This document shows positions 7,824 to 29,602 of a DNA stretch of 64,000 bases, piece by piece. The notes under the pieces were generated by a model. That model saw only the letters and a program-made list of their open reading frames with translations. It did not search any database and was not told the DNA's origin. Source of the DNA: an uncultured Chloracidobacterium sp. GTDB lineage: Bacteria > Acidobacteriota > Blastocatellia > Pyrinomonadales > Pyrinomonadaceae. The position numbers were made by a program, and so were the translations under genes. Each line of letters starts with the position of its first letter. Positions within the stretch are counted from its first letter, which is position 1. Location of the stretch: contig CAZGLZ010000006.1 in assembly GCA_964526245.1 (NCBI GenBank), positions 2,215 to 66,214 of the forward strand, written 5' to 3'.

Positions 7824-10800
7824 ACTACCCGAGCATCCGGATAGAAGGTGCGATCCTTTCGCCCGATATACTTGAGCATCTTGTCGATGGTGCGAAAGGC
7901 CAGGGGCCAAAGGACTTCGGCTTTGAGTCGGGCACGAAGGTAAAAGATGAGATCGCTCGTGCATGGGCAGATGCTCAGGACTATTGGCGGATCTTCCAGC
8001 GGAAGCTCGCAACGGTAAAGGAAGGCACAGCCGCTACCACCGAAACGCGCCAGAACTGGATAATCCCGCTCCTTGGCCTTCTCAAGTATGAGGTCGAGTT
8101 TCAAAAAGCTGGTACTGAAATCCATGGCAGGAACTACGCGATTTCACATCGCATAACCAATCGCGCCAACACGCCGCTTCATATTGTCGGATACAACGAC
8201 CAGGCCGGGCTTGACCGAAAGTCGGCAGCGTCACGAATGTCCGCCCATGCCCTTGTCCAGCAATATCTTAATCTCTCCGATGAGCTTTACGGAATCGTCA
8301 CTAACGGGCGGGTAGTTCGCCTTCTCCGTGACAGTTCCCGACTGGTAAAACAGAGCTACCTTGAGTTCGACCTCGATCGTATCTTTACTGATGGCCTCTT
8401 CGCCGATTTCGCGATTCTATTTCGGCTGTTGCACGCCACGCGTTTGCCCTTAAAGGCAGAGGAAGCTGCCGAAAGCCTGATCGAAAAATACCACCAGGAT
8501 TCGCTCGATTCAGGCGCAAGAATTCGCGATGGACTTTCCGAGGCGGTTAAGGAAGCAATTCTGAATTTCGCCAATGGCTTTCTTTCCAATCCGGCAAACA
8601 CTCGGCTTTGCGAAGCGATCGAGGTGGGAATACTTACTCCCGATGATTACTATCGCAACCTTCTTCGCCTGATCTACCGGCTGCTCTTTCTGATGGTTAT
8701 AGAGGAGAGAGACCTGGTTTTTCCGTCGGATTCCGAAAACAGAGAAAGACTTCAGCACTTCCGAAGGATCTACCGAGACTATTACAGCGTTGGGAGACTC
8801 AGGCAGCTTGCCGAAAAGCGCTATCTCGCTGACAAGCGGCATCACGACCTATGGATGGCACTGGTATCCACCTTCAAGCTTTTCGAGGCAGATGGTCCCG
8901 GTGAGAAGCTAGGCATTAAGCCGCTTGCCGGCGATCTGTTTGGCCCGAGGGCGATCGAGGAGATCTTCGACGCTCGGCTCGGGAACGACGTACTTCTCGG
9001 CTGCCTGCGATCGCTCGGTTTATACGAGCACCCGGACACACGGCAGATGATCCGCGTAAATTACGGTGCTCTCAATGTTGAAGAATTCGGTTCCGTTTAC
9101 GAAGGTCTTCTCGAATACGAACCGGTGTTTGATCTATCCGGTTCAACTCCTCGCTTCGGCTTTGTCGAAGGCGACGAGCGTTCCCGTACCGGATCTCACT
9201 ACACACCTGACGAACTCGTCCAGCCCCTGATCAAGCACTCACTCGATTACCTGATCGAAGATTGTGTCCGTAGCCCGCACGTAAGTAAGGGCTCCTCCGA
9301 CAGCTCCCCTCCTTACGAAAGAGGGGTGGACGCCGAAGGCGGACGGGGTGGTTCTCCCACTACCGCAGAGCAACGCCTCCTAGATCTTCGCGTAGCAGAC
9401 ATAGCCTGCGGTTCCGGTCATATCTTGCTCGCCGCCGCGAGAAGAATTGCGACCGAGCTTGCCACCGTCCGCACCGGCGAAGAGCAGCCCTCGCCGACAG
9501 CTTACCGACAGGCACTCCGCGATGTTATCCGCAATTGCATTTACGGCGTTGACGTAAATCCCCTGGCAGTTGAGCTGTGTAAGGTCGCTCTTTGGCTTGA
9601 GGCTCACAATCCGGGCGAGCCGCTGAACTTTCTCGATCACCACATCAAATGCGGCAACGCGATCGTCGGTTTTGTCAGCAAGGAAGAAGTAGACCGTGGC
9701 GTTCCAGAAGAGGCGTTCGCCCGGATGCCGGACGACCACGCAGACTTTATCAAGGTGGTCAGAAAAAAGAACAAGGACGAGCGAAGAGAGCGGCAGCGTG
9801 TCTTGAACTTCACCGACGAGCGTCGCGGCGAAATCGCAAATGTGCTTGAGCGTTGGCGCGTGATTACAGCGATGCCGGAACGCTCGCCCGCTGAAATCGA
9901 TGTCAAGAAGGCGGCTTTCGAAAACTTCTCAACACAGGGTGCGGCTTATGAACTGGAAAAGCTCGCATCGGTGCCGGTAGCACAGTTTTTTATTCCGAAG
10001 GTGCCGGAGAATAGTTCTAAGCTGATGACCGACGCTGAGTTTCGCGACTACTGGTCCGGCGAGCGTAGACCGCAAAGCCAGTCTTTCGCGGCGGCCGAAG
10101 CCGTTGCGAGTGAGAAACGATTCTTTCATTGGTTTCTCGAGTTTCCTGGCGTGATGGAACGCGGCGGCTTCGATTGTATTCTTGGGAATCCGCCCTATCT
10201 TGGAAGCCAGGCATTGAGCGGCAATTTCGGCTATCCTTTCTGTCATTTTCTTAAATATGAATACGCACCGGCAGGTTTAAGCGACCTGATAGTTTATTTC
10301 CTCAGGCGTATATTTTGCCTTCTGCGCCCAAGCGGCTTCACTGCGTTCATCACGACAAATTCCATCAAAGATGGGGATAACAGACGCGACGGCCTGGATC
10401 AAGTCTTATCGACGGGCGGAACGATCAATATGGCGGTGCGTGCGATACGTTGGCCTGGTCGGGCAAATGTTGTTGTTTCGCAGTTGGCTATACACAAGGG
10501 GGACTGGATCGGTCCTCGACTACTCGACAACCGAGAAGTAGAAACAATTAATGCGTATTTTGAGGATAATCTACCGGAACCGGATCCAGTACCTTTGCAC
10601 CCCAACAAGAATAGAGTCTTTCAAGGGGTTATTTTCCTGGGCGAGGGATTCTTACTTTCCACCGAGGACGCAGATGCCTTGTTGAGATTAGATCCGAGAA
10701 ATCACGAGGTGATTTACCCGGTCATCAACAACAAAGAAATGAACGGTTCACCGGACCAAAGTTCGACTCGAAAAATTATAAACTTCCATAATTGGCCAAT

Positions 10801-11707
10801 AGAACGAGCTCAGACGTATTCAGAGCCCTTCAGAATTGTGGAAGAGAAGGTTCAACCGTTTCGAGCTACTCAAAATAGAGCGCGAAATCGGGACGTTTGG
10901 TGGGTCTACGCAGAGCATCGACCTGGATTGAATCGTGGGATTGCTCGTTTGCCATTTTGCTTCGCGGTCGGGCGCGTGACAAAACATCTGACCTTCTCGC
11001 GGGTGGCGACAAATTATGTTTTTTTGAACAACCTGTACATATTCACGACCTCACGATGGGACCTTTTTACTGTCGTCCAGAGTGCGATCCACGAAGTGTG
11101 GGCTCGGAATTATAGCATGACGTTGAAGCAGGATTTGCAGTATTCGCCATCGGACTGCTTCGAAACGTTCGCCTTTCCTGACGATCTTTGGAACGAAGAA
11201 AATGCCAAACTCGCTGAGATCGGCGAGCGTTATCACGAACACCGCAAACAGCTAATGCTGATGCTCTGGCTCGGCCTGACAAAGCTCTACAACCTTTTCC
11301 ATGATACGGAGCTATCCGTCGAAATGGTCGCCGATGTTAGCGGCAAAGACGAGGACATCGCCCGCGAAGGCTACGCTGTGCTCGTAGAACTCCGCCGCCT
11401 CCACGTCGAAATGGACAATGCCGTCCGCGACGCCTACGGCTGGCAGGACCTCGACCTCGGCCACGGCTTCCACCAGGTCGAAACCCTCCCCGAAAACGAC
11501 CGCACCCGCTACACCATCAGCCCCACCGCCCGCAAAGAAGTCCTAAAGCGTCTCCTCGCCCTAAACCACACCCGCGCCGCCGAGGAAGCAGCTCATGCCG
11601 CCGCCGCAAAACCGTTCAAAAAGAAAGGTGGCAAGAAATCGAAATCAGACCCGGCAACAGACGGCGACAACCCGCTTTTAGCGGCGGGACCGTTGTTTGA
11701 ACAATGA
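7820..11707 (+). CDS. Large gamma-class N6-adenine DNA methyltransferase (Eco57I/PglX/DrmMI-like), 1295 aa
   Basis: SAM-binding motif VADIACGSGHILL (nt ~9389-9425) and catalytic ILGNPPYLG (nt ~10181-10205). Start overlaps the SNF2 stop (ATGA). Confidence 0.85.
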   Translation: MNYPSIRIEGAILSPDILEHLVDGAKGQGPKDFGFESGTKVKDEIARAWADAQDYWRIFQRKLATVKEGTAATTETRQNWIIPLLGLLKYEVEFQKAGTEIHGRNYAISHRITNRANTPLHIVGYNDQAGLDRKSAASRMSAHALVQQYLNLSDELYGIVTNGRVVRLLRDSSRLVKQSYLEFDLDRIFTDGLFADFAILFRLLHATRLPLKAEEAAESLIEKYHQDSLDSGARIRDGLSEAVKEAILNFANGFLSNPANTRLCEAIEVGILTPDDYYRNLLRLIYRLLFLMVIEERDLVFPSDSENRERLQHFRRIYRDYYSVGRLRQLAEKRYLADKRHHDLWMALVSTFKLFEADGPGEKLGIKPLAGDLFGPRAIEEIFDARLGNDVLLGCLRSLGLYEHPDTRQMIRVNYGALNVEEFGSVYEGLLEYEPVFDLSGSTPRFGFVEGDERSRTGSHYTPDELVQPLIKHSLDYLIEDCVRSPHVSKGSSDSSPPYERGVDAEGGRGGSPTTAEQRLLDLRVADIACGSGHILLAAARRIATELATVRTGEEQPSPTAYRQALRDVIRNCIYGVDVNPLAVELCKVALWLEAHNPGEPLNFLDHHIKCGNAIVGFVSKEEVDRGVPEEAFARMPDDHADFIKVVRKKNKDERRERQRVLNFTDERRGEIANVLERWRVITAMPERSPAEIDVKKAAFENFSTQGAAYELEKLASVPVAQFFIPKVPENSSKLMTDAEFRDYWSGERRPQSQSFAAAEAVASEKRFFHWFLEFPGVMERGGFDCILGNPPYLGSQALSGNFGYPFCHFLKYEYAPAGLSDLIVYFLRRIFCLLRPSGFTAFITTNSIKDGDNRRDGLDQVLSTGGTINMAVRAIRWPGRANVVVSQLAIHKGDWIGPRLLDNREVETINAYFEDNLPEPDPVPLHPNKNRVFQGVIFLGEGFLLSTEDADALLRLDPRNHEVIYPVINNKEMNGSPDQSSTRKIINFHNWPIERAQTYSEPFRIVEEKVQPFRATQNRARNRDVWWVYAEHRPGLNRGIARLPFCFAVGRVTKHLTFSRVATNYVFLNNLYIFTTSRWDLFTVVQSAIHEVWARNYSMTLKQDLQYSPSDCFETFAFPDDLWNEENAKLAEIGERYHEHRKQLMLMLWLGLTKLYNLFHDTELSVEMVADVSGKDEDIAREGYAVLVELRRLHVEMDNAVRDAYGWQDLDLGHGFHQVETLPENDRTRYTISPTARKEVLKRLLALNHTRAAEEAAHAAAAKPFKKKGGKKSKSDPATDGDNPLLAAGPLFEQ
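9275..9365. repeat. Short palindrome-rich REP/MITE-like segment lying in frame inside the methylase ORF
   Basis: Hairpin cccctc(9306-9311)/gagggg(9321-9326) and gtgg(9348-9351)/ccac(9357-9360). The +1 frame reads PLLTKEGWTPKADGVVLP. The methylase frame reads SSPPYERGVDAEGGRGGSPTT, just upstream of motif I. Confidence 0.35.
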
Positions 11708-11717
11708 GATTAGTATG
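11468..11717 (+). repeat. Direct repeat copy A: functional 3' end of the methylase plus spacer up to the next ATG
   Basis: Shares the identical 21-mer gaaaacgaccgcacccgctac (11492-11512) with 14873-14893. Flanking similarity runs through gccctaaaccac and the GPLF-encoding tail. Confidence 0.75.
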
Positions 11718-12416
11718 AAGATAGCTGCGATTAATCACGAAACTTGGTACAAGGAACACATAAGCGTTTTCGAGGTGCCAATACTTGAATCCTACATCGA
11801 CTCTGTTGAAAAACAGGTTCAAATTGGATTTGACACATGGAAGGACAGATTGAAATCCTCAGGGCACTTTGGCGATCCTGATACGGAATATTATCAGGAG
11901 ATCAGTGCCGTTGACGGTCTTGATGATTCAACCTTTCATCTTCCCTCCATATTCGATGAGTACTTTCCTCAGCTTCAACGACAGAGTGCCCTGATCGTCC
12001 TTTATTCTTTTCTAGAACGTGAGCTACTACATCTATGCGAGCTTTGTCGTAAATCAAACAACGCTCCGCTCAAAGCAAAAGACCTTTGTAGGGACGGTAG
12101 CGACATTGCCCGCTGCCAGATGTATCTCGAAAAAGTGATAGGTTTAGGAGTTACAAGAGACGATGCAAAATGGCAGGAAATCGACCACGGAATACGAATC
12201 GTCCGCAATCAAATAGTTCACCACGAAGGCAAAGTGCCGGATACCAACTCCAGAGACTTTAACAAGCTTGAAAACCACGTTAAGCAGCAAAACAATTCGG
12301 TTTCAATAGACAAAATATCTTCATCTATCGTTCTCAACAATGGCTACCTTAAATACACACTCGATACGTTCAACGAGTTCTTTAAGACTTTGGATGATGC
12401 CTTGTCAAACCCTTGA
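11715..12416 (+). CDS. HEPN-domain protein (Rx4H), hypothetical RNase
   Basis: IRIVRNQIVHHEG with RNQIVH at nt 12204-12221. Predicted all-helical protein. ATG at 11715 is the point where homology to repeat copy B ends. The ORF track start at 11697 is TTG. Confidence 0.55.
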   Translation: MKIAAINHETWYKEHISVFEVPILESYIDSVEKQVQIGFDTWKDRLKSSGHFGDPDTEYYQEISAVDGLDDSTFHLPSIFDEYFPQLQRQSALIVLYSFLERELLHLCELCRKSNNAPLKAKDLCRDGSDIARCQMYLEKVIGLGVTRDDAKWQEIDHGIRIVRNQIVHHEGKVPDTNSRDFNKLENHVKQQNNSVSIDKISSSIVLNNGYLKYTLDTFNEFFKTLDDALSNP

Positions 12417-12418
12417 AA

Positions 12419-12455
12419 AACGTCGCAACGCTTTAGGTTTGCGGCGTTATTCTTC
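12419..12455 (+). terminator. Hairpin after the HEPN gene, possible intrinsic terminator
   Basis: aacgtcgcaa (12419-12428) pairs with ttgcggcgtt (12439-12448) with one G-U pair, followed by attcttcc. Confidence 0.4.
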
Positions 12456-12599
12456 CTTGAGTTCAGGTCAGCACCGTGCGGACCGCGAAGGCCACAAACG
12501 GAGGGCACTTTGATCAGGGTCGGGCAAACATGGGGCCGTCGTTTTAGGTAATTATACGGTGCCGAAGGATAACATGCTTAAGTAGGAGGGAGTTCAACT

Positions 12600-12935
12600 G
12601 TGGAACAGATTCATAATGATGACAATCGTAAATTGACGTCATCCGAAGAAAAGCTCGCTGGGATTGCGGATCGAGGCGAAGGAGAACGACGGGACGAATG
12701 GCACCTTGATCCACCGGACTCCTGCGACTATTGTCACCGAAGCCTCTCAAATTCGATCTTCTTCGTCGATGGTAAGGTGAAGGGCAGTTTTCAGTGGGGA
12801 AATATGTGTGCAGAATGTTTCTTTACCTACGGCGACGCGATTCGGTGGGGAGCGGGCCAACTCTACCAACAGGTCGGGTCGAATGAGTGGCTAATGGTCG
12901 GTGGCTTCCCGACGGACGAGCCGGAACCGTTTTAA
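12600..12935 (+). CDS. Small Cys4 (zinc-ribbon-like) protein, hypothetical
   Basis: GTG start preceded by a strong SD taggaggga (12581-12589). CDYC...(about 30 aa)...CAEC pattern. Confidence 0.5.
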   Translation: MEQIHNDDNRKLTSSEEKLAGIADRGEGERRDEWHLDPPDSCDYCHRSLSNSIFFVDGKVKGSFQWGNMCAECFFTYGDAIRWGAGQLYQQVGSNEWLMVGGFPTDEPEPF

Positions 12936-12985
12936 CCCATATAGATCCTCGCCCGGAAGCCCGAGAGATTTTCATTAACTACTCT

Positions 12986-14539
12986 ATGTCTGAACCTGTA
13001 ATTGACCCAATTGATTTTCCACAGTCTGAACTTGTTATCGGGCTCGTCGCCCCAGTTGGTACCGACACGCGGTTTATTGTCGATACGATTTCCCAGCGTC
13101 TCGATCGATTCAATTACACGCGTGAACCTTTGAAGTTAAGCGAGTATCTGAAGACCCTAGACTTGGGTGTTCAGATCGATGAAAATACAGCTTTCCGACG
13201 CGTCGTCACGCTCATGGATGCCGGCGACGCATTGCGAAAAAAAGTTGGCGGCGGAGGTGAGAATATTGACGGTTCGGGGGACGCTCTTGCTCGAATTGCC
13301 GTTTCTGAGATTCACAAACGGAGGCCAATCGATACAGCGTCAAACGAAAAGAACGAATCACGCATCGCAAGACCCAAAACAGCTTATATTCTTGACTCGC
13401 TTAAGCATCCAGACGAAATTGTTTTGTTGCGACGAATTTATGGAGATGGGTTCCTCTTGATTAGTATCTCTTCCTCTCGACAGACCAGGAAAGAGAATTT
13501 GGAAAGACGCGGTATGTCAGGTGACGAAGCCGATACCTTAATCAGCCGTGATGAGAATGAGAGCGACCCTTTGGGACAGAAAACTCGAGACGCATTTCAC
13601 TTAGCTGACGCATTTATCGACGCCAATAATCTTGAAACTAGTCGTTCGCAGATTGAGAGAATACTCGACATTCTGTTCGGTGCTCGGTATAAAACGCCAA
13701 CGTTTGCGGAATACGCAATGTTCCTTGCTTTTGCATCAGCCTTTCGATCAGCAGATCTTTCAAGGCAGGTTGGCGCGGCAATTGCATCCAAAACAAATGA
13801 AATTCTTGCGGTCGGTTGTAATGACGTCCCTCGGTTCGGAGGAGGCTTATACTCTAGTGACGACGCCGAAGATCACCGGGACCATAAGCTCGGCGTTGAC
13901 CCGAATGTTCAGAAGCGGAACGAGATCTTCAGCAACATCGCGCAAATGCTGAAGGATAAATATCCAATGGCAGTTGACGGAAAGTCTGTGGAGGAGTTGA
14001 CGCAGGCGGTGAAAAGGGATTTGAAGGCAAGCGTTTTGTCGAGTCTTACTGAGTTTGGACGAACGGTTCATGCCGAAATGGATGCGATTGTAAGTTGTGC
14101 TAGGAGCGGAATCAGTGTTCGCGGGGGTACGCTATATACAACAACATTTCCGTGCCATAATTGTGCCCGTCATATCATTGCTGCTGGTATCGATACTGTT
14201 GTCTACGTTGAACCGTATCCTAAGAGCCAGGCTGGAGAATTGCATGAGGATTCGATAGACTTGGAAACGCAGTCTGCGAATAAGGTAACTTTTAAGCCAT
14301 TTGTTGGAATCGGATCTCGGCGCTTCATGGACTTGTTTTCGATGGGAATGAGTTCAGGCTATCCAATTGAAAGAAAGTCCAACGAATCCGGTGAAAAATT
14401 AGATTGGACGCCTGAGGCCGGTCGCCTAAGGGTTCCAATGTTACCCACGTCATATATCGAACGCGAACGCCTATCAATACAGAAACTGGACAAACTTGAG
14501 GAGGAAAGTGATGTCGATAAAGAAACGGAAGGACACTGA
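12986..14539 (+). CDS. AvcD/DcdV-like anti-phage deoxycytidylate/dCTP deaminase (N-terminal P-loop-kinase-like domain plus C-terminal CMP/dCMP zinc deaminase)
   Basis: Deaminase zinc motifs HAEMDAI (nt ~14069) and PCHNCARHI (nt ~14150). N-terminal LVIGLVAPVGTD glycine-rich loop. Size ~517 aa from ATG 12986; an alternative GTG at 12887 gives 550 aa. Confidence 0.7.
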   Translation: MSEPVIDPIDFPQSELVIGLVAPVGTDTRFIVDTISQRLDRFNYTREPLKLSEYLKTLDLGVQIDENTAFRRVVTLMDAGDALRKKVGGGGENIDGSGDALARIAVSEIHKRRPIDTASNEKNESRIARPKTAYILDSLKHPDEIVLLRRIYGDGFLLISISSSRQTRKENLERRGMSGDEADTLISRDENESDPLGQKTRDAFHLADAFIDANNLETSRSQIERILDILFGARYKTPTFAEYAMFLAFASAFRSADLSRQVGAAIASKTNEILAVGCNDVPRFGGGLYSSDDAEDHRDHKLGVDPNVQKRNEIFSNIAQMLKDKYPMAVDGKSVEELTQAVKRDLKASVLSSLTEFGRTVHAEMDAIVSCARSGISVRGGTLYTTTFPCHNCARHIIAAGIDTVVYVEPYPKSQAGELHEDSIDLETQSANKVTFKPFVGIGSRRFMDLFSMGMSSGYPIERKSNESGEKLDWTPEAGRLRVPMLPTSYIERERLSIQKLDKLEEESDVDKETEGH

Positions 14540-14717
14540 GGAGAACCGTGCTTTTTGGGCATTTGTTGAAGAGACTTCAAGAAGTGTTGAGGAACATTTT
14601 CCCGCTTGGAAACGAGGCGATGGGTTTCAGGAGCCTTCCGAAGGTATAAATGGCAACAGCTCACAAATTCTTTCTTCGGCAAATAAAGATCCTCAGACGG
14701 GCATGAAATGTGATTAG
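14511..14717 (+). CDS. Small hypothetical protein (68 aa) overlapping the deaminase 3' end
   Basis: ATG 14511 preceded by gaggagg (14498-14504). Overlaps the last 29 nt of the deaminase ORF. Confidence 0.35.
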   Translation: MSIKKRKDTEENRAFWAFVEETSRSVEEHFPAWKRGDGFQEPSEGINGNSSQILSSANKDPQTGMKCD

Positions 14718-14779
14718 TTCGTATTGGGTTTTAACCATTTAAGATTGTGATGTACTCTCTCCGATCGTCGAATCTTTGT

Positions 14780-15101
14780 CGCTGGTTTAACTTATTCCAA
14801 TCTCAAGATCTGCGACGCTGTTGGATCGGCCCGAGCCTTTGCTTTTGTTTCCAGGAGGCTCAAGCCCTCCGTGAAAACGACCGCACCCGCTACTCCATCA
14901 GCTCCAATGTCCCCCCAAAAGTCCTAAAACACCTCCCAGCCCTAAACCACCGACGCGCCGCCGAAGAAGCCGCCACCGGCAAAACCAAGAAGCCAAAAGC
15001 CAAGAAATCAAAAACAAAGAGCCAAACCCCGAAACCAGGCACCGACGACGACCCGCCCCCCCCCTCCTAGCCTCCGGTCCTTTGTTTAAGCATGATGAAT
15101 A
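14780..15101 (+). pseudogene. Decayed 3' remnant of a second DrmMI-like methylase (direct repeat copy B)
   Basis: Reads FQEAQALRENDRTRYSIS..VLKHLPALNHRRAAEEAA against FHQVETLPENDRTRYTIS..VLKRLLALNHTRAAEEAA in the intact gene. Upstream CDAVGS and the tail SGPLFKHDE* lie in other frames, indicating frameshifts. There is no upstream ORF body. Confidence 0.7.
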
Positions 15102-15103
15102 GT

Positions 15104-15739
15104 ATGTGGTGTAACAATTTGAGACAAAGCAATTTGAGCGTTGCGAACTATAACAACCTCCATCCCGAAGGACAGAGGTTAATTCGCAGTTGGTTTGACC
15201 GCTCCTGGCAATCGTACGAAGGGAATGACGATGCTTTCGAAGCATTCATTTTTTTGTGGATTTCGTTCAATGGTTGGGCGACGTGTATTACCGGTCTATT
15301 TCGAGACGCAAGTATTATCGATTCTGTCGCTAACAACCAGGTAATTGCGACTGAGTTCATCCGGTTAGTCCGCAACGACCGTGAGTTCGCTGAAAACGTC
15401 AGAGAACTTTGCGACATGCTGCCGATTTTTGATCCGCGAAGACTGCCGAATAGAAACTGGGGATTGTTTTCGCCTGATCAAGAAGGTCGCCGGCGGCAAA
15501 TACAACAATATCTGCAAACTGGGACGAAATCTTTTAACCCCCCGTGCTGGAAAGATCACGTAGACGCCGGTGGTCGAATGCCCACGGATTGGCCGCATGT
15601 CTTAAAGGCGATCTACCAGATCCGCTGTAACCTCTTCCACGGGCAGAAAACCGCTTTTCAAGAACTTGATAGGAGACTGGTCGATCTCGCCTTCAAGATT
15701 CTTCACCGGTTCGTGTCCGACGGTGGCTACCTTAACTAA
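15104..15739 (+). CDS. Second, unrelated HEPN-like protein (Rx4H)
   Basis: IYQIRCNLFHGQK with RCNLFH at nt 15623-15640. Occupies the same position relative to the methylase tail remnant as the first HEPN gene. Confidence 0.5.
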   Translation: MWCNNLRQSNLSVANYNNLHPEGQRLIRSWFDRSWQSYEGNDDAFEAFIFLWISFNGWATCITGLFRDASIIDSVANNQVIATEFIRLVRNDREFAENVRELCDMLPIFDPRRLPNRNWGLFSPDQEGRRRQIQQYLQTGTKSFNPPCWKDHVDAGGRMPTDWPHVLKAIYQIRCNLFHGQKTAFQELDRRLVDLAFKILHRFVSDGGYLN

Positions 15740-15811
15740 AGGATAACCGATACTGAGGCATGGCAAACTCGTCGAATCAGCAAAGCTTTGTCGGTGATAT
15801 GAAGAACTTTC

Positions 15812-17821
15812 ATGATTGAAATTGGTGACATACTGAACGGGATTCGCGAAGAGATTCGTGCAACGCCGGACTATGTCGCGTTTACGATAAAACGGAGTAT
15901 CCGCGAGGGCTCAATCTGGAAGATCATTCTGTCCTCGGATGAAAAGAGCCTAAATGAACTAGATGAAGCACTGGAAGGGGCACTCGTCTGGTGGCCAGGC
16001 AATCCGCCCGGAACGGCCGAGGTCCTTTCGGTAGTTTCGGAAGAGTCGCAACTGAACCTCCGATTTGCGACCCAAACGCCCCCTGAGAACGGAAAGATTC
16101 TCCGCGTTTACCTACCGCAGTATCTAAATAAGCTCGAAGAACTTTGGTCGGATGACATTTGGGCAAATCGGTGCTCCGAATGGCTTAAACGGGTAAGGGC
16201 CACGAACGCGAAAGATGACGTTATTTCCCTGAAGACCTCCAGCTTTCGGTGGCTCCGAGCGTGTCAGAAGAGGGCGTTTGCCCTTCCTGCTTTCAAGGTG
16301 AGTTTCCTGCATGGCCCCCCAGGCACGGGAAAGACGCGAACACTTGGGGCGTTGGTGGCTCAGTTTCTAAGTACGTTCCAAAACGCGCGTGTTCTTTTGC
16401 TTTCGACGACGAATGTCGCAGTCGATGAAGCGATCACTGCTGTCGATTCGGCGTTGCTCGAAGCGCCCGCGTTGAATGGCGGCCCGCGAATTCGGATGAA
16501 CGAGTGCAAGCGGATTGGGAACCAATTTGTTGCTACAAAATACAAGGGACGCCAACACTTGCTTCCAAAGCAGGAACCCGAAATCCTCGAGCAACTAATC
16601 CTCTTAGAGGCCTCACGGCCACGCGAAGAAGATGTCCAAGCCTACGCCACTTGGAAGGAAAGGACCGAAACTTTACGCGCTCAAATGCGTTCCAAGGCAA
16701 TCAACACATTCAGGCATTCGCGGCTTATCGCGATGACGACAACGCTTGCGGTTTATAGCTTCGATGACCTTCGCGAGCACTACCCGGCTGATCTGATCGT
16801 ATTCGATGAATCGAGCCAAGTTGGGCTTGCCCACGCTCTGGCACTTGCCCCGCTCGGAAAGCGGGCTCTTTTTACAGGGGATCCCAATCAGCTTGCCCCG
16901 ATATGTCGGTCGAAGGTGCAGGATTCTGCGGAGTGGCTTGGTCAATCCATGTTCTCCCTCCAAAATGACTTTGAGGAGGCAACGTGTTTCCTTGACGAAC
17001 AGTCCCGAATGACAGAGCCGATCTGTCATGTTGTAAGCAAAACGTTTTATCAAGGAAGGCTAAAGGTGGCTTCGGGCTGCGACACGAAATGGAAACTAGC
17101 GCGGGACGTTTCGTCCTCGCATGCCGAGAAAAATGCCGTAAGCATCCACCGTGTCAAAAAAGAGGGCCAGTATTCTAAGAAGTACGGCGGCTATATAAGG
17201 TATGAATCGGCAGAGCTGATCTCCGCTCTTGTTGGTCGGCTATCAAGTGAACAAGATGCAGCCGATATTCTTGTCTTGACCCCATTTCGCGCTCAGCGTC
17301 GGTTGATAAAAACTTTCTTAAAGAATGGAACGATTAGGGGTGTCAGAGTCAGTACCGTGCACCGTGCCCAGGGAAGCGAATGTCACACGGTTATTTTTGA
17401 CCCCGTCTCAGGAAGCAATAATTTTCTAAATACTGAAGATGCACCTCGGCTAATTAACGTAGCACTGAGTCGAGCAAAGGCCAGACTTGTCGTATTCCTG
17501 TCACCTGACGACTTGGTGAACCCTACACTACAGAAGTTCAATGCGGTAGCTGCGATTCTACCCGGCATTATGCAGAATGACGGCTCGAGGGTGCCGAGAA
17601 TTCAGCAGCATCGCCATATTTCAAGAATACTCGACGAGAACTTTCCGCAGAACGCAATCAACAAAGAAATAACAATACCTTCGAAGAATGGCCTGATGTT
17701 TGGGCGAATTTTGGAGGTTTCCTCCGATGGCGAGAGCTTCAAAATGCAAGTGTACGAAACCGGGGAAGTTAAGAAATTTATCACAGAATTTGTTCGGAAA
17801 AATGCGAAAGGACGTATATAA
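15812..17821 (+). CDS. Superfamily 1 Upf1/DNA2-like helicase (AAA_11/AAA_12 type, COG1112-like)
   Basis: FLHGPPGTGKT, LLLSTTNVAVDE, LIVFDESSQ, FTGDPNQL, VSTVHRAQGSE, NVALSRAK. The first ~150 aa and last ~80 aa are unassigned. Confidence 0.85.
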   Translation: MIEIGDILNGIREEIRATPDYVAFTIKRSIREGSIWKIILSSDEKSLNELDEALEGALVWWPGNPPGTAEVLSVVSEESQLNLRFATQTPPENGKILRVYLPQYLNKLEELWSDDIWANRCSEWLKRVRATNAKDDVISLKTSSFRWLRACQKRAFALPAFKVSFLHGPPGTGKTRTLGALVAQFLSTFQNARVLLLSTTNVAVDEAITAVDSALLEAPALNGGPRIRMNECKRIGNQFVATKYKGRQHLLPKQEPEILEQLILLEASRPREEDVQAYATWKERTETLRAQMRSKAINTFRHSRLIAMTTTLAVYSFDDLREHYPADLIVFDESSQVGLAHALALAPLGKRALFTGDPNQLAPICRSKVQDSAEWLGQSMFSLQNDFEEATCFLDEQSRMTEPICHVVSKTFYQGRLKVASGCDTKWKLARDVSSSHAEKNAVSIHRVKKEGQYSKKYGGYIRYESAELISALVGRLSSEQDAADILVLTPFRAQRRLIKTFLKNGTIRGVRVSTVHRAQGSECHTVIFDPVSGSNNFLNTEDAPRLINVALSRAKARLVVFLSPDDLVNPTLQKFNAVAAILPGIMQNDGSRVPRIQQHRHISRILDENFPQNAINKEITIPSKNGLMFGRILEVSSDGESFKMQVYETGEVKKFITEFVRKNAKGRI

Positions 17822-18189
17822 CAATAAAACACAATCATCGCTATCCGGTAAAACATCTTTCAGTTCGCGTACCGTGGCACGACAACGCATGGAATGGCAC
17901 CGTTTGTATCGATCCGAAATCGAATAGTGCCTGTCTCGCGCTAAAGAGCTGCTCTCTGACCCGCGATGACGAAAAGGAACAGAGTCTTTGCGGAAAGAAA
18001 ATTGAGAATTTGGGACAAAGCGATTTTCCGGCTTGCCTAAAAGAAAGCGGCGCCATGATGGCCAATTTCGCTTTTAATAAGAGCGTAAACCATCCCTACG
18101 TGCTCACCTCGGACATGGCAGCTTACATCTTTCCGGTTTTAGGGAACATTGGTAGTGCCTCTAAGAAGACCATACCTTCAAGCAGTTAG
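17773..18189 (+). pseudogene. Start-less open frame encoding ..HLSVRVPWHDNAWNGTVCIDPKSNSACLALKSC..; likely an N-terminal remnant of a larger gene
   Basis: Read by hand. Frame is open from 17773 to the stop at 18187-18189 with no ATG/GTG/TTG before the conserved-looking RVPWHDNAWNG block. Absent from the ORF track. Confidence 0.3.
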
Positions 18190-18241
18190 CAGGTCGTCGA
18201 GATCAATCTAAGCTAATCCGATCGCAACCGGTCCTGCTTCG

Positions 18242-18496
18242 TCATGAAAGATCGAGTTCGGAATCATCGTCGATAAGGAGATCCGTGCTTACGCCGGCAA
18301 GCCGAGCATACTTCAGAAGCAGTGGATACGAAGGTTCGCGAGTTCCTCGTTCAAATGCCGAGATCGTACTGCGAACCACTTCCTCTTCAACCCCGAGCCT
18401 TTCGATCAACCCGTCTTGAGAAAGTCCGAGCGACAGTCGGATCTGCCTTAGCTTCCTGGCCAAATGCTTCGGTTTCGGCCGAGAGCGTGTTCCCAT
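18242..18496 (-). CDS. XRE-family helix-turn-helix transcriptional regulator
   Basis: LRQIRLSLGLSQDGLIERLGV....ISAFERGTREPS is the typical HTH_3 pattern. Confidence 0.8.
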   Translation of the reverse strand: MGTRSRPKPKHLARKLRQIRLSLGLSQDGLIERLGVEEEVVRSTISAFERGTREPSYPLLLKYARLAGVSTDLLIDDDSELDLS

Positions 18497-18518
18497 TAGA
18501 AGTTACCTCCTAATGGGA
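18491..18518. promoter_or_regulatory. Perfect 9-bp inverted repeat spanning the XRE start codon and SD
   Basis: tcccattag (18491-18499) and ctaatggga (18510-18518), 10-nt spacer containing the SD (aggaggt on the minus strand). Confidence 0.35.
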
Positions 18519-18753
18519 ATTTGGTGATTCGAATGCCCTTGCGAGTAGAGCCATTTGACTCTATACTCTTGCCGTCAGGTCGCTGAGCCGCAGAGATGCA
18601 AATCGACCCAGCATAAGCTGTCAGAAACGAGCCCTCCGGTTGATGGGCATACCGACAAACATATTACGCCAACTTTCGAGGGATGGAAATCTCGCGAGGC
18701 ACTGGTTTCAGATAACCGAAAAGCACTCAACTTTTCGTCTTGGTGAATAAAAA

Positions 18754-19272
18754 ATGCTAGGTATTGAATTTTTGTCGCCGTTGTATTTGATCGTGCTTGC
18801 GCTTTACTTCCTAACGTCATCGATCAAGATGTTTGATATTCGAATGACTCAAGCTAAGAACGGAGCGTGGGGAGAAGACGCTCGACAGGAAGCGCAGAGC
18901 CTGACACTGCCCGGATGGGTCGGCGCAGTCTTTTACCTTGATTTCCTTCTTGGTGGGCTCCTCCTCCTTTTTAATTGGAAGGCCACTCTTGTCGTTTGGA
19001 TTGTCCGCTTTGTCCTCAAAGTCCTTCCGGTACTAGAAACGGTCGGAAATCTGCTTATGTTTCCGTTTCGGCCCAAACCATTAGACCGGGAAAGAGAAGC
19101 TAGAGATCTCGAGCGAGTCCTTCGAGATCTAGCGGAACGAGAGACCAGAGGGGATACCTTTGCGGAGGTACATCGAAGAATGGCGGACATGCTGGCTCAA
19201 GAGGCTGATAGGGAACGAGATGCGAAAAGGGGTGGAACAGCTCGGAATTTCAACCGAGAAAAGGAGAATTAA
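18754..19272 (+). CDS. Membrane protein (about 3 TM) with highly charged C-terminal tail, hypothetical
   Basis: Hydrophobic stretches LSPLYLIVLALYFL, WVGAVFYLDFLLGGLLLLF and LVVWIVRFVLKVL, then a D/E/R-rich tail. Confidence 0.5.
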   Translation: MLGIEFLSPLYLIVLALYFLTSSIKMFDIRMTQAKNGAWGEDARQEAQSLTLPGWVGAVFYLDFLLGGLLLLFNWKATLVVWIVRFVLKVLPVLETVGNLLMFPFRPKPLDREREARDLERVLRDLAERETRGDTFAEVHRRMADMLAQEADRERDAKRGGTARNFNREKEN

Positions 19273-19334
19273 GTTGCCATTACTGTTTCCTCCGCGGTGG
19301 TTAGGACTATGCTAGCGAAAATATGCGTTCGGTA

Positions 19335-19362
19335 TTGACATTTTATGAAATTTGAGTAGTCT
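19335..19362 (+). promoter_or_regulatory. Sigma70-like promoter candidate
   Basis: TTGACA (19335-19340), 16-nt spacer, TAGTCT (19357-19362). Confidence 0.25.
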
Positions 19363-19372
19363 GAAATATGAG

Positions 19373-19433
19373 ACGCCTGCTTCGAAAACGAGTTCCTCTA
19401 TGGAATAACTTCGAGGCAGGCGTTTATTGTTTT
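19373..19433 (+). terminator. Long hairpin with U-rich tail
   Basis: 14-bp stem 19373-19386 / 19410-19423 (one G-U pair) followed by ttattgtttt. Confidence 0.45.
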
Positions 19434-19434
19434 G

Positions 19435-19473
19435 GCCCGTGTATATCAGCAGATGTACACGGGCTTTTTGTTT
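19435..19473 (+). terminator. Canonical rho-independent terminator
   Basis: gcccgtgta (19435-19443) / tacacgggc (19456-19464) followed by tttttgttt. Confidence 0.65.
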
Positions 19474-19527
19474 GCCCAGAAGCTCAAAAGGAATCGCTTC
19501 TGCAGATGAAGAAAAGAGATACGAGAT

Positions 19528-20754: not shown

Positions 20755-21551
20755 CAATGCCAATAGATCTAATACTTGTTCGCCACGGACACAGCGAAGG
20801 GAATCTGGCCGTGAGTAGGTCCAAGAAAGGAGACGATAGTCTGTATACTCCCGATTTTCGAGAACGTCCGGGACATCGTTGGAGGCTGACGGCCGAGGGA
20901 CAAGAGCAAGCAGCAACCGCCGGCAAATGGATACTCGACAACATAGGAGTTCAGTTCGATCGATACTACGCGTCACCCTACGTGCGAACTCAGGAAACGG
21001 CCGCTTTGCTCGATCTTCCCGGTGCCGAGTGGCGGCTCGACCAGCGACTTCGCGAACGCGACTGGGGCGAGATAGGATCGGTTCCGATACCGGAACAGGC
21101 CAGTCTCTATCCTCGAAACATAGTCCTACAGAAAACAGATGCCCTTTACTGGCGGCCACCTGGTGGTGAGTCGATAGCGGATGCTCGCATGCGTGTCCGG
21201 ACCTTCTTCGACACGCTGCACCGCGAGTGCGAAGGCCAATCCGTCGTCGTCGTAACGCACGGCGACATTATCTCAGCCGTGAGAGGAGCTATCGAATATC
21301 TAAGCGATGAGGAATGGCTGGCGTTCGACCGTGACGAATCGAAGCGGATCCTGAATTGCCATATCTATCACTATTCCCGACGCGACCCGTCCACCGGCGA
21401 GGTCGGGAAATATCTGAGCTGGCGGCGTGCTGTCTGCCCTACCGACACCGGTATTGACACGGGCTGGGAAACGATCACCCGCAAGAGATTCAGTAACGCA
21501 GAGCTGCTCGAACGCGTTAGCCGCGTCGAGCCAACCGTGGAGGTGCGATGA
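20751..21551 (+). CDS. Histidine phosphatase superfamily (phosphoglycerate-mutase-like) protein
   Basis: LILVRHGHSEGN (RHG motif) and VVVVTHGDII. ATG 20751 forms an ATGA overlap with the upstream stop. Confidence 0.8.
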   Translation: MTMPIDLILVRHGHSEGNLAVSRSKKGDDSLYTPDFRERPGHRWRLTAEGQEQAATAGKWILDNIGVQFDRYYASPYVRTQETAALLDLPGAEWRLDQRLRERDWGEIGSVPIPEQASLYPRNIVLQKTDALYWRPPGGESIADARMRVRTFFDTLHRECEGQSVVVVTHGDIISAVRGAIEYLSDEEWLAFDRDESKRILNCHIYHYSRRDPSTGEVGKYLSWRRAVCPTDTGIDTGWETITRKRFSNAELLERVSRVEPTVEVR

Positions 21552-27880: not shown

Positions 27881-28043
27881 CCCTTTCATTAGTATGGAAT
27901 CCTAGATGCGGCGATATGCCGCCGGAGGCCGACAAAACATTGGGTCTCAGACGGTTCTCGGGTGGTTTTGGGCCGTTGTTCGGACGACGCGGACAGTTGT
28001 ACGGAGGTCGCGGGCAGGTCTTTCTCGTCCCGGTGAGTGAGTA

Positions 28044-28526: not shown

Positions 28527-28610
28527 CCGGGCATCTTACCAAACCGCAGTTCCCTTTTTTAGCATGTAGACTTTTGTCTACATTCTTACTTGGGCTTCTC
28601 ACTCAAATCT

Positions 28611-29501: not shown

Positions 29502-29602
29502 TTCATTTCTCCATTCGTGTTGCGGGCCTACTTTAACAATGGGGTTTCAATCCCGAGGGACTTAACTCCAGATTTCCACCCCGCGTGTGATTGATCATCC
29601 TA

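Follow-up and report, generated by a model that had tools for sequence, protein, structure and literature searches.

The 3′ end of a methylase gene in a DISARM-like defence locus of an uncultured Chloracidobacterium sp. occurs twice, once as the functional end of the gene and once about 3.38 kb downstream as a decayed remnant that stands directly before another set of genes. This structure of the window (the whole stretch of 64,000 nucleotides that was analysed) is an evolutionary scar and not a new molecular system. Displacement of a resident gene module, with homology in the methylase gene (drmMI) as anchor and an illegitimate joint at the distal end, is the best model for its origin, and we hold it with modest confidence.

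The DISARM-like locus and its duplicated methylase tail

The genes of the locus are all co-oriented; coordinates are those of the window.

1-4968, + strand: large DEAD/DEAH helicase, DruE/DrmA-like, first core gene, 5′ end cut by the window edge
4965-7823, + strand: SNF2-family helicase, DrmD/DpdE-like
7820-11707, + strand: drmMI, intact Eco57I/MmeI-type N6-adenine methylase of 1295 aa
11426-11714, + strand: tail A, functional drmMI 3′ end with the 7-nt spacer to the next ATG, duplicated downstream
11492-11512, + strand: first copy of an exact 21-mer, GAAAACGACCGCACCCGCTAC
11715-12416, + strand: “HEPN-A”, 233 aa, invariant Rx4H (RNQIVH), first cassette gene
12600-12935, + strand: Cys-rich ORF, 111 aa
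12887-14539, + strand: AvcD-like dCTP deaminase
14511-14717, + strand: small ORF, 68 aa, last cassette gene, intact, one of a family of 50-78-aa proteins
14718-14807, + strand: junction spacer between cassette and copy B, probable site of a novel (illegitimate) joint
14808-15103, + strand: copy B (psi-tail), decayed 3′ end of a drmMI allele, still colinear with the HEPN-B start
14873-14893, + strand: second copy of the 21-mer, GAAAACGACCGCACCCGCTAC
15056-15064, + strand: C9 homopolymer, in which one added C restores the frame into the PLLASGPLFKHDE end and its stop
15104-15739, + strand: “HEPN-B”, 211 aa, all-alpha, invariant RCNLFHG.K, first gene of the putatively displaced module
15812-17821, + strand: SF1 helicase (AAA_11/AAA_12 by Pfam, MkoA-like by PADLOC), partner of HEPN-B

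The large helicase matches the DruE profiles of PADLOC (E 3e-80) and DrmA weakly, carries the Pfam domains DEAD and Helicase_C, and has homologs at the equivalent position in L002, L066 and L004 (L numbers designate the compared loci). The second helicase matches DpdE (4e-180) and DrmD (1e-80), with Pfam SNF2-rel_dom and Helicase_C, and drmMI matches the DrmMI profile PDLC02643 (E 6e-215), with Pfam Eco57I, MmeI_Mtase and MmeI_TRD. Class 1 DISARM reportedly comprises DrmD, DrmMI, DrmA, DrmB and DrmC. The window resembles this class (Ofir et al. 2018) by its strong matches to the DrmMI and DrmD profiles and by the large helicase preceding both, but it has neither a PLD-nuclease DrmC (none seen) nor a separate DUF1998 DrmB, its large helicase best matches Druantia DruE profiles, and drmMI stands at the end of its gene order (helicase, DrmD, DrmMI). 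It is a DISARM-like locus, not a canonical one.

The 3′ ~290 nt of drmMI (~11426-11714) occur again at ~14808-15103. Local alignment of 11400-11750 with 14720-15150 scores 128, far above chance (20.6 ± 2.4 in 200 shuffles, maximum 28), and a direct-repeat search pairs 11468-11592 with 14849-14973, i.e. 125 nt of 78% identity at a spacing of 3381. The first-pass annotation had described this duplication as covering ~240 nt from ~14849; the duplication stands, with its left edge now moved to ~14808 (CTGCGACGC), upstream of which similarity is absent. The shared 21-mer it had reported, which codes for ENDRTRY, is exact and found nowhere else in the window. In protein terms, 39 of 79 residues are identical between the DrmMI tail and copy B (tblastn), and the ORF 14747-15070 matches the extreme C-terminus of DrmMI (PDLC02643 positions 1282-1338 of 1347, E 1e-7). 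Similarity continues past the stop to the ATG of the next gene and is then lost, 22 of 31 positions being identical by hand count between 11687-11717 and 15076-15106 (about 21 of 31 in the earlier reading). The best-matching part is the ENDRTRY...VLK.L.ALNH.RAAEEA block and not the Lys/Pro-rich stretch; a low-complexity match was rejected.

Six contigs, drawn from several samples, contain the left junction, five of them at 100% identity and L075 at 99.8% (3 mismatches). The right junction was recovered in two ENA contigs, each from a different sample; one of these has 3 SNPs relative to the window and an identical copy B, C9 run included. Since both junctions are reproduced in assemblies from several samples, the double-tail structure is no assembly artefact. 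A misassembly of two strains, in which a repeat-induced chimera should give one hybrid tail and not two, or an integrase-mobilised element that targets the drmMI 3′ end and uses the 21-mer as att core, is accordingly extremely unlikely: the identical 21-mer in both repeats and the integrases of L061, L077 and L080, which are located distally to the cargo, would fit such an element, but no integrase or transposase was found in window positions 1-32 kb, and the left edges of stranded tails vary between loci, which indicates no fixed site. These observations, with the junctions recovered in independent assemblies, largely refute both possibilities.

Copy B had been called a dead remnant needing at least two frameshifts to be read, and both statements are borne out. 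The gene body is absent and the frame is broken twice: CDAVGS and the W...ENDRTRY block lie in different frames, and the end PLLASGPLFKHDE with its stop is reachable only by one extra C in the C9 run. Differences between copy B and intact tails are spread evenly over codon positions 1/2/3 (13/14/16), whereas intact tails differ from one another by 4/3/12, 2/2/10 and 3/3/14 (Fisher p = 0.004), and 11 of the 28 residues invariant in intact tails are gone. Because of these frame breaks, flat substitutions and lost residues, copy B is identified as a decayed drmMI pseudogene under relaxed constraint. Its identity to every intact tail is 60-64%, against 70-87% among intact tails, and no gene is called at copy B in the ENA assemblies.

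It is very unlikely that copy B is kept as functional DNA or RNA, be it as promoter, 5′ leader, translational coupling for HEPN-B and the SF1 helicase, or homology arm for programmed cassette loss. The segment fills the entire 386-nt gap between cassette and HEPN-B, the part that it shares with L002 and L066 is the junction to the ATG, it has escaped deletion although codon positions 1 and 2 have diverged by ~26% in a neutral-looking way, and the tails have an unusual C/A-rich, T-poor composition; orphan modules of CDI/Rhs loci can moreover be reloaded by recombination (PMC3150448). However, neither tail contains a sigma-70-like promoter or an Rfam family, and in L076 HEPN-B and the SF1 helicase stand behind a different gene without a tail remnant. 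Deletion of the cassette between the repeats, suggested in the first-pass annotation, is possible in principle but should be rare, given 78% identity and a longest perfect match of 21 nt, and no deletion variant is seen in any assembly. A functional role would be compatible with any of the proposed origins.

The two modules and their native junctions

The description of a defence cassette bracketed by two tails holds, HEPN-A, the Cys-rich ORF, the deaminase and the small ORF lying between tail A and copy B. HEPN-A has seven homologs only; six of the seven family members show weak, sub-threshold HEPN_RiboL-PSP matches, PADLOC gives RTasHEPN at 6e-6, and no significant structural match was found. 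HEPN-B has 63 homologs and a model of pLDDT 91 with no significant PDB match, and its homologs have as neighbour an SF1 helicase (L076) or a NACHT protein (L080/81). The first 63 aa of the L076 helicase, which also stands behind a HEPN-B homolog, are 98% identical to those of the window's. No kinship is detectable between the two families (BLASTP; hhalign probability 0.5%), and both are only putative HEPN proteins, named for their Rx4H motif alone. The deaminase (PADLOC dCTPase, E 1e-166; Pfam dCMP_cyt_deam_1, E 4e-17) has 517 aa from the ATG at 12986 or 550 aa from the GTG at 12887 used by gene callers, and the small ORF has 25 homologs, nearly all of similar length and aligning from residue 1. 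The Cys-rich ORF is without Pfam match, and its homologs (64-67% identity) come after HEPN-B in L002 and L066-69. The first-pass annotation had counted it as cassette cargo; as it travels with HEPN-B in relatives and with HEPN-A here, the history of the locus involves more than one event.

Loci with one tail and either downstream arrangement, for which the first-pass annotation had proposed to look, do exist. In L002 and L066-68, the closest DISARM-like relatives (DrmD 75%, DrmMI N part 75-81%), a single drmMI tail leads directly into a HEPN-B homolog that opens with the same ATGTGGTG, and in L065 and L077/78 a HEPN-A homolog begins within 7 nt after an Eco57I/MmeI-type methylase. Both types of junction are thus native somewhere, and the arrangement in the closest relatives indicates that copy B with HEPN-B is probably a native drmMI-end junction moved downstream. 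The repeat, the decayed copy and this native junction together support the earlier reading of a recombination scar. No relative having drmMI, HEPN-A, the Cys-rich ORF and the deaminase but lacking copy B was found, and the donor arrangement is hypothetical.

Proposed displacement of the resident module

According to the displacement model, the initial drmMI allele would have ended immediately before HEPN-B, as in the closest relatives, and copy B would represent its last ~100 codons. Incoming DNA may have brought a drmMI 3′ region and, behind it, HEPN-A, the Cys-rich ORF, the dCTP deaminase and the small ORF. It would have paired by homology with the DISARM-like locus already present, either within drmMI or at a point upstream of it, while its far end, which lacked homology, was joined illegitimately to a point in the resident drmMI ~300 bp short of the stop, in a one-sided, homology-facilitated event. 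The joint would lie at 14718-14807, a spacer with no match to drmMI or to any fetched locus (blastn, tblastx). The outcome would be an intact drmMI “loaded” with the HEPN-A/deaminase cassette and an orphan, consisting of the old tail and the HEPN-B/SF1-helicase module, shifted 3.4 kb downstream, the stranded tail decaying afterwards.

Similar scars are present in unrelated bacteria, with independent stranded or duplicated tails in L021, L031, L053, L058, L060, L154 and L160. In L031, drmMI is followed by an AIG2-like gene, ~140 aa from the start of the next core gene, a tail copy and a different gene, whereas the donor-type loci L036 and L013 have drmMI, AIG2 and the full core gene; the pattern of L021 is similar, with an AlbA_2 gene. 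Displacement is favoured by these two loci, L031 and L021, because the import ends there within a foreign gene fused to the resident tail. For the same reason, homologous recombination within the tail, as first proposed, is retained as regards homology in drmMI, but a clean reciprocal exchange inside the tail is not favoured; between insertion of the cassette and replacement of the front of a resident locus, the data are not strictly decisive and the two loci lean towards displacement. On the other side, the association of the Cys-rich ORF with HEPN-B in L002/L066 obliges this model to assume at least one further exchange. Stranded tails measure ~70-150 codons in the window, L021, L031, L053, L060, L154 and L160; L044, by contrast, has kept 346 aa. 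Random illegitimate joints do not by themselves explain why most are short, so that selection, long-repeat instability or a mechanistic bias has to be invoked.

Integration of the Campbell type, in which a circle bearing a drmMI tail and the four-gene cassette enters by a single crossover in the resident tail (e.g. at the 21-mer) and leaves two reciprocal hybrids, is unlikely, although it accounts for cargo flanked exactly by direct repeats and for the longest perfect identity lying inside both copies. The tail copies of L031, at 99% over 150 nt and then abruptly divergent, look as expected on one side of a crossover, and closure of a circle could have left the gene fragments that are fused to the second tail in L031 and L021. 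Yet tail B past the crossover should then be the resident allele and be nearest to L002-type tails, whereas it is tail A that lies nearer to L002, L066 and L061, to the left of the 21-mer as well as to its right, a test blurred by the decay of B. Minimal efficient processing segments are ~20-30 bp in E. coli, and a homologous crossover between sequences that are 78% identical and match perfectly over 21 nt at most would be a very inefficient event. Evidence of circular intermediates is absent, and L053, where the tail is split from the methylase body without duplication, is left unexplained.

Defence systems pile up side by side, and the scar could derive from two complete DISARM-like loci in tandem, the second later removed by a deletion that ran from just past the small ORF to the last ~300 bp of its drmMI. 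A contig with two convergent drmMI genes (L138), a longer fragment of 346 aa with target-recognition domain and tail but no methylase N part (L044) and orphan tails far from any DISARM genes (L154, L058) fit this scenario. It is nevertheless quite unlikely, as it requires a deletion of ~10 kb or larger with one end just past the cassette, does not explain the head of the next core gene fused to the tail in L031 and L021, and finds no further DISARM fragment at 14.7-22 kb of the window.

Known systems and the drmMI 3′ end as cargo hotspot

Displacement has already been proposed for T6SS effector-immunity arrays (PMC5361080) and for Rhs/CDI orphan modules (PMC3150448). In Rhs, CDI (cdiA-CT/cdiI) and T6SS loci, a conserved segment adjoins a hypervariable module (Jackson 2009; Poole 2011, PMC3150448; Kirchberger 2017, PMC5361080); a new module is loaded onto the main gene and the old one moves downstream, retaining an upstream coding stub of variable length, often with stops or frameshifts, by a proposed homology-facilitated illegitimate recombination, and recombination between stubs can reload an orphan (PMC3150448, PMC5361080). 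The window likewise has a conserved segment, a variable module and a putatively displaced old module with a decayed stub. Its stub is, however, the 3′ end of a DNA methylase gene in a DISARM-like defence locus, its modules are separate downstream genes instead of a fused toxin domain with an immunity gene, it has one orphan and no array, and no self/non-self immunity logic accounts for the keeping of the old module.

Embedded genes have been described in DISARM, BREX, type I RM and Hma systems (Payne et al. 2024, bioRxiv 10.1101/2024.01.29.577857), and the window shares with these the presence of accessory defence genes (HEPN, GmrSD, ATPase and others) in or beside methylase-containing systems. 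That study catalogued the cargo and tested its function; the arrival of cargo is not described and the word “recombination” is absent from its main text. It excluded pseudogene-containing loci, so that scars such as copy B would be filtered out.

The drmMI 3′ end is a cargo hotspot: the first ORFs downstream of drmMI, 135 in number, fall into 93 families or clusters, and many overlap the drmMI stop. Identity to L002/L066/L061 is 81/75/71% in the N part of the protein, 65/47/37% in the target-recognition domain and 72/79/73% in the tail. At the nucleotide level, the tail reaches 0.87-0.92 to relatives, compared with 0.4-0.8 elsewhere; no part of the gene scores higher against L066 and L061, and against L002 the tail comes within 0.01 of the top value. 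Its third codon positions are 52-57% C, and its synonymous identity (0.81-0.82) is close to that expected from its own codon usage (0.77-0.80), so that this extreme C-ending bias accounts for the high value and recent exchange is not proven. Tails are C/A-rich and T-poor, and in 102 of 105 loci they have a larger AT skew than the gene body; the DNA of the 21-mer is conserved across phyla, its degenerate version matching 96 metagenome stretches. As in the swapping of target-recognition domains in MmeI-family and type IIG/IIL enzymes, the most variable part (37-65%) is flanked by conserved segments usable as recombination arms, but the event in the window concerns the genes downstream of the enzyme and left a duplicated arm behind. 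A short block of high identity, set between a hypervariable target-recognition domain and variable cargo, the drmMI tail would be a natural anchor for recombination.

Gene content of the DISARM-like locus

The locus carries two sets of accessory genes behind the methylase gene drmMI, the second of which is preceded by another, decayed drmMI 3' end (hereafter copy B; the 3' end of drmMI itself, 11426-11714, is called tail A). Loci from other genomes and metagenomes used for comparison are designated by L-numbers.

Genes and remnants of the locus, in order
1-4968 (cut by the window edge): DruE/DrmA-like large helicase; best against DruE profiles, DrmA weakly (1e-9)
4965-7823: SNF2 helicase; PADLOC DpdE 4e-180 (best), DrmD 1e-80
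7820-11707: drmMI, Eco57I/MmeI-type methylase, 1295 aa; PADLOC DrmMI 6e-215
First cassette gene: HEPN-A, 233 aa, Rx4H motif
Second cassette gene: Cys-rich ORF, 111 aa
Third cassette gene: AvcD-like dCTP deaminase; PADLOC dCTPase 1e-166, Pfam dCMP_cyt_deam_1 4e-17
14511-14717, last cassette gene: small ORF, 68 aa
14808-15103: copy B
Directly 3' of copy B: HEPN-B, 211 aa, all-alpha, invariant RCNLFHG.K
3' of HEPN-B, past copy B: SF1 helicase

Two components of DISARM class 1, a DrmMI N6-adenine methylase and a DrmD SNF2 helicase, are present. Of the others, DrmA, DrmB (DUF1998) and DrmC (PLD nuclease), the first has its weak match in the large helicase; no PLD gene lies downstream in the window, and the 5' side of the locus lies beyond the window edge. 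The deaminase unites an AvcD-type profile match with a zinc-binding domain, and its translation displays the HAE and PCxxC motifs. A search for the AvcI small-RNA antitoxin over 11000-16000 (E up to 0.1) matched no family of Rfam, which may or may not model AvcI. The small ORF belongs to a family of 50-78 aa proteins with about 40 conserved N-terminal residues (25 representatives at E <= 1e-3) and may act together with the deaminase or regulate it. Its interpretation as a truncated fragment of a donor end, comparable to the gene heads of L021 and L031, was rejected because its homologs are all 50-78 aa long.

The HEPN labels of the first-pass annotation stay provisional. The Rx4-6H motif is invariant in both families (R164/H169 in 7/7 HEPN-A and R174/H179 in 37/37 HEPN-B sequences), but neither protein has a significant match to a curated HEPN family or a PDB entry. 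HEPN-A reached HEPN_RiboL-PSP below threshold only (lowest E 0.018; the window protein scored 10.7 bits, with a cutoff of 28.4) and PADLOC RTasHEPN at 6e-6, HEPN-B matched none of the curated HEPN families, and Foldseek comparison of AlphaFold models (pLDDT 75 for HEPN-A, 91 for HEPN-B) with the PDB gave no significant neighbour, the best E-values being 1.3 and 0.84.

Between HEPN-A and the Cys-rich ORF, a 184-nt non-coding gap (12417-12600) contains a GC-rich hairpin at about 12423-12448 (CGTCGCAACGCTTTAGGTTTGCGGCG) followed by a T-rich run. This putative terminator may separate HEPN-A from the deaminase operon; it was not called by a consensus terminator scan. Around the same gap (12380-12640), blastn gave no hit to a HEPN-B 3' end that might have persisted ahead of the Cys-rich ORF. 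Further downstream, 18242-22870 holds an unusual gene combination: a minus-strand HTH regulator (capH-like, PADLOC 2e-7) and a 172-aa ORF, an NT5C 5'-nucleotidase fused to an HD_4 domain (408 aa), a His_Phos_1 phosphatase, and a 440-aa protein with an ATE_C (arginyl-tRNA transferase C-terminal) domain, with a possible function in defence or nucleotide metabolism. An SbcB-like exonuclease (PADLOC RTasSbcB 1e-46), an Endonuclease_NS non-specific endonuclease and a 680-aa patatin-like phospholipase are encoded at 26489-31645, and the defence island may extend past 22 kb.

The decayed methylase tail and its native context

The duplicated methylase tail reported in the first-pass annotation was recovered by repeat search, by alignment and through a shared 21-mer. 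A direct repeat of 125 nt at 78% identity (11468-11592 and 14849-14973, spacing 3381) is the only long one in 7000-20000, and the exact 21-mer GAAAACGACCGCACCCGCTAC occurs solely at 11492-11512 and 14873-14893. Smith-Waterman alignment of 11400-11750 with 14720-15150 scored 128, while 200 shuffles scored 20.6 +/- 2.4 with a maximum of 28. Gapped similarity runs from about 11426/14808 through the last base before the next ATG (11714/15103), and none was detected upstream of about 14808. Low-complexity sequence, which that annotation had named as the explanation that would undo its claim, does not account for the similarity; it peaks in the block coding for ENDRTRY(T/S)IS...VLK.L.ALNH.RAAEEA and is lowest in the Lys-rich stretch. 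HEPN-A and HEPN-B show no homology by BLASTP, and profile-profile comparison gave a probability of 0.5%; the duplication therefore ends at the start codons. For the same reason, a tandem duplication of tail plus HEPN gene, envisaged from short repeats at similar offsets (D3, D5), was rejected.

Copy B is a dead remnant of drmMI. The ORF at 14747-15070 matches positions 1282-1338 of the 1347 of the DrmMI profile (E 1e-7), i.e. the extreme C-terminus, and tblastn of the DrmMI tail on copy B gave 39/79 identities. Its main frame reads WIGPSLCFCFQEAQALRENDRTRYSISSNVPPKVLKHLPALNHRRAAEEA..., and two breaks interrupt it: a 4-nt indel in the RDAYGW region, which places the corresponding CDAVGS upstream in a different frame, and the C9 run at 15056-15064, where one extra C is needed to read the end PLLASGPLFKHDE and its stop (PLLAAGPLFEQ and stop in the intact tail). 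No gene was placed in the region by gene callers. Differences among the intact tails of the window, L002, L066 and L061 are dominated by third codon positions (4/3/12, 2/2/10 and 3/3/14 for positions 1/2/3), whereas those between copy B and the intact tails are evenly spread (13/14/16, 14/16/12, 11/15/17 and 13/16/16), indicating relaxed constraint (Fisher p = 0.004, positions 1+2 vs 3). Copy B has also lost 11 of the 28 residues that are invariant in six intact tails from several phyla, and is 60-64% identical to every intact tail, these being 70-87% identical among themselves.

Misassembly and sequencing error were excluded, as the junctions are reproduced in contigs from several samples. 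The left junction (drmMI, HEPN-A, Cys-rich ORF, deaminase) was found in six contigs, five of them 100% identical to the window and L075 at 99.8% (3 mismatches). Two ENA contigs, originating from different samples, contain the right junction (deaminase, small ORF, copy B, HEPN-B, SF1). In one of them, 3 SNPs in 8.6 kb separate the sequence from that of the window; its copy B is base-identical, including the C9 run, so that both frame breaks are the same in a second sample.

A genome scan with the DrmMI C-terminus as query yielded 59 loci. Single-tail relatives, which the first-pass annotation had proposed to look for, were found: in L002 and L066-68, drmMI is followed directly by HEPN-B. The closest locus of the scan, L002 from an Acidobacteria MAG (helicase 70%, DrmD 75%, DrmMI N part 81%), has a single tail with a HEPN-B homolog (56%) immediately behind it, then a Cys-rich ORF homolog (67%) and a gene of 340 aa; L066-68 share this order. 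Its junction, ...CTGTTTGAATGA...ATGTGGTGCACC, is colinear with that of copy B, ...CTTTGTTTAAGCATGA...ATGTGGTGTAAC, from which it follows that copy B and HEPN-B preserve a native drmMI-end junction. Between L002 and L066, the Cys-rich ORF, a 320-aa gene and an AlbA_2 gene are 92-98% identical, and HEPN-B only 71%.

Both HEPN genes behave as the first genes of portable modules, judging by their neighbourhoods in relatives. The HEPN-A homologs, seven only, include those of L065 and L077/78, which begin 7 nt past the stop of Eco57I/MmeI-type methylases of other subfamilies, and that of L061, 2 kb downstream of a drmMI belonging to the window clade. HEPN-B accompanies a NACHT ATPase in L080/81 and an SF1 helicase in L076, where the helicase N-terminus is 98% identical to that of the window and the pair lies behind a different gene with no tail remnant. 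This gene, of 317 aa, belongs to the family of the 340-aa gene of L002, and the comparison of L076:1-2038 with window 15104-16000 displays a sharp mosaic (first 63 aa of SF1 98% identical, adjacent HEPN-B only 74%). As the Cys-rich ORF accompanies HEPN-B in relatives, the history of the window must have taken more than one exchange. An alternative reading remains in which copy B was kept functionally as the leader of HEPN-B; against it, a promoter and terminator search of the tails gave nothing beyond shuffle expectation, Rfam matched no family in them, and L076 does without the remnant.

The drmMI 3' end in other lineages

Stranded or duplicated tails recur at the same kind of locus in independent lineages: duplicated in L021 and L031, stranded in L053, L058, L060, L154/L099 and L160, and as part of a longer fragment in L044. 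A recent-looking analogue of the window scar is L031:5300-6800 (Chitinophaga MAG CAZLOQ010000182.1), in which drmMI is followed by a 151-aa AIG2/GGACT gene, a 207-aa fusion ORF and an unrelated 175-aa gene. In the fusion ORF, the N-terminal ~140 aa encoded by the next core helicase gene run into a second copy of the drmMI tail (150 nt at 99% identity, spacing 1096), similarity resuming at the stop/ATG overlap as in the window; loci of the donor type (drmMI, AIG2, full core gene) are represented by L036 and L013. Nested scars are found in L021:2800-6800 (Isosphaeraceae MAG JBAUOX010001128.1), where drmMI precedes an AlbA_2 gene, a core-gene head fragment, a dCTP-deaminase-like fragment and a fusion of 220 aa of core-gene head with a second tail (84-91% identity) carrying a 108-nt internal insertion, the two head fragments (4982-5071 and 5766-5855) being 79% identical.

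In L053:4120-12670 (Nitrospirae MAG DRDE01000083.1), the tail was split from the methylase without duplication: the C-terminus of the Eco57I-type methylase is a fused DUF3800 domain, the usual tail is absent, and it occurs 1.3 kb downstream as an ORF of its own (142 aa), with a 167-aa gene and an EVE-domain gene on its upstream side and an OLD-family ATPase behind it. The remnant of L160 is abutted directly by an AlbA_2 gene, those of L154/L099, L058 and L060 are isolated, and the 346-aa fragment of L044 comprises target-recognition domain plus tail. Separately, a 4-kb metagenome contig (L138:990-3840) carries two convergent drmMI 3' ends, both with frameshifted tails.

Stranded tails always extend through the native stop on their right, and their left edges vary from roughly 70 to 150 codons before it. 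This variation, which leaves no fixed attachment-site boundaries, argues against a site-specific event, and integration of a site-specific element is also unlikely because no integrase is encoded within window 1-32 kb.

The 3' end of drmMI is a cargo hotspot, with 135 first downstream ORFs in 93 sequence clusters over all fetched loci, many of these ORFs overlapping the drmMI stop by 4-17 nt. Where a core helicase gene comes after drmMI, as in one subtype, 0-9 kb of cargo separate the two, among it AIG2-like and AlbA_2/Schlafen-like genes. The target-recognition domain of drmMI is hypervariable, at 65/47/37% identity to L002/L066/L061, and the tail is conserved (72-79% amino-acid and 0.87-0.92 nucleotide identity to the same loci). 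In nucleotide identity no other part of the gene surpasses the tail in the comparisons with L066 and L061, and in that with L002 the tail lies within 0.01 of the maximum. Where residues are identical, third positions agree at 0.81-0.82 in the tail and at 0.41-0.50 elsewhere (p <= 1e-6). Codon shuffling within amino-acid classes inside the tail still gives 0.77-0.80, which points to the extreme C-ending codon bias of tails in the window clade (C3 52-57%, T3 6-8%) as the origin of this signal. Low synonymous divergence was therefore rejected as proof of recent tail exchange, codon bias being sufficient. Whatever the cause, the tail is a place where diverged loci can still pair.

Compositional peculiarities accompany this region. 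The coding strand of 11200-11800 and 14800-15200 is C/A-rich and G/T-poor (GC skew about -0.2, AT skew +0.25 to +0.3), and AT skew is higher in the tail than in the gene body in 102 of 105 intact tails; codon bias, an unstructured or Rho-loading-like RNA, or a DNA-level constraint could cause it. A second tract of raised synonymous identity (0.67-0.76 vs about 0.4 elsewhere), shared with L002 only, covers window 9510-10135 (DrmMI aa ~564-772) and looks like a recent recombination tract inside the methylase domain.

Proposed cargo displacement and its significance

The window locus is a well-supported recombination scar that documents cargo exchange at a DISARM-like locus. In the comparators, imports start within the tail or upstream of it and break off at arbitrary positions in foreign genes, where a resident tail is attached; this pattern is characteristic of integration anchored by homology on one side and joined illegitimately at the distal end. 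In the window, an incoming segment with a drmMI 3' region and the HEPN-A/deaminase cassette would have displaced the resident tail together with HEPN-B and SF1, the novel joint probably lying in 14718-14807, a stretch for which similarity search gave no match. Single-crossover integration of a circle remains an alternative; against it, tail A is nearer to relatives than tail B both left and right of the 21-mer, although the decay of B blurs this test. Another that remains is the former adjacency of two loci followed by a deletion. That most remnants are consistently short is more than random joints alone can explain; long direct repeats may be unstable, truncated proteins carrying a target-recognition domain may be harmful, or later trimming may have taken place.

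Neither the donor type (drmMI, HEPN-A, Cys-rich ORF and deaminase, without copy B) nor the cassette-deletion variant (left part of tail A joined to right part of tail B, ...AACCCTCCCCGAAAACGACCGCACCCGCTACTCCATCAGCTCC...) was encountered in the genome scan, the metagenome motif scan or exact-protein look-ups. The repeats could in principle recombine and delete the cassette, but at 78% identity and with a 21-nt perfect match such events should be rare.

Displacement scars are well known in polymorphic-toxin loci. For the methylase ends of defence systems, no description of them was found in the searchable literature, a limited search that leaves their absence unproven. A homology-anchored displacement model has been proposed for T6SS effector-immunity arrays (PMC5361080) and for Rhs/CDI C-terminal displacement (PMC3150448), and the orphan modules of these systems keep varying lengths of upstream conserved coding sequence (PMC5361080; PMC3150448). 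Likewise in the window, the stub stands directly before an intact module, copy B reaching the ATG of HEPN-B, with HEPN-B and SF1 intact and conserved, and the displaced module is loaded on the main gene in relatives (L002, L066-68). In Rhs/CDI/T6SS loci, however, the conserved protein itself carries the variable part as a fused C-terminal domain, accompanied by a cognate immunity gene, whereas the variable modules here are separate genes starting past the drmMI stop, with no evident toxin-immunity pair.

A more specific interpretation sees in the last ~100 codons of drmMI-type methylases, beyond a protein domain, a dedicated recombination arm whose DNA sequence stays uniform and with which DISARM-like loci would capture, stack and re-load downstream defence cassettes, stranded tails representing stored orphan modules. 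Drawn from the C-ending codon bias and the 0.87-0.92 nucleotide identity between otherwise diverged alleles, this interpretation appears doubtful. If true, the arm would play in defence systems the part that the VENN and Rhs-core boundaries play in polymorphic toxins, and deletion between tails could reactivate stranded orphan modules such as that of copy B.

Many anti-phage genes sit inside methylase-based systems (such as DISARM, BREX and type I RM) or are attached to them. This ‘guilt by embedding’ now serves the discovery of defence genes and, to our knowledge, the route by which the embedded cargo arrives has hitherto not been described. Accessory defence genes are known to be embedded in DISARM, BREX and RM systems, in a study that left out pseudogene-containing loci and did not discuss recombination (bioRxiv 10.1101/2024.01.29.577857). 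Pipelines discarding such loci miss informative cases. The scar is an evolutionary trace and does not represent a new molecular system or immunity mechanism; its interest for the evolution of defence islands is moderate, and it can serve annotation as a marker, stranded methylase tails offering a cheap indication of cargo boundaries and former DISARM sites. The scar also delimits two candidate portable modules, HEPN-B with the SF1 helicase, and HEPN-A with the Cys-rich ORF, the dCTP deaminase and the small ORF. Together with its analogues in several phyla, the window locus provides a concrete footprint of exchanges anchored at a conserved methylase gene end, in which old modules are displaced rather than lost and leave datable pseudogene stubs.
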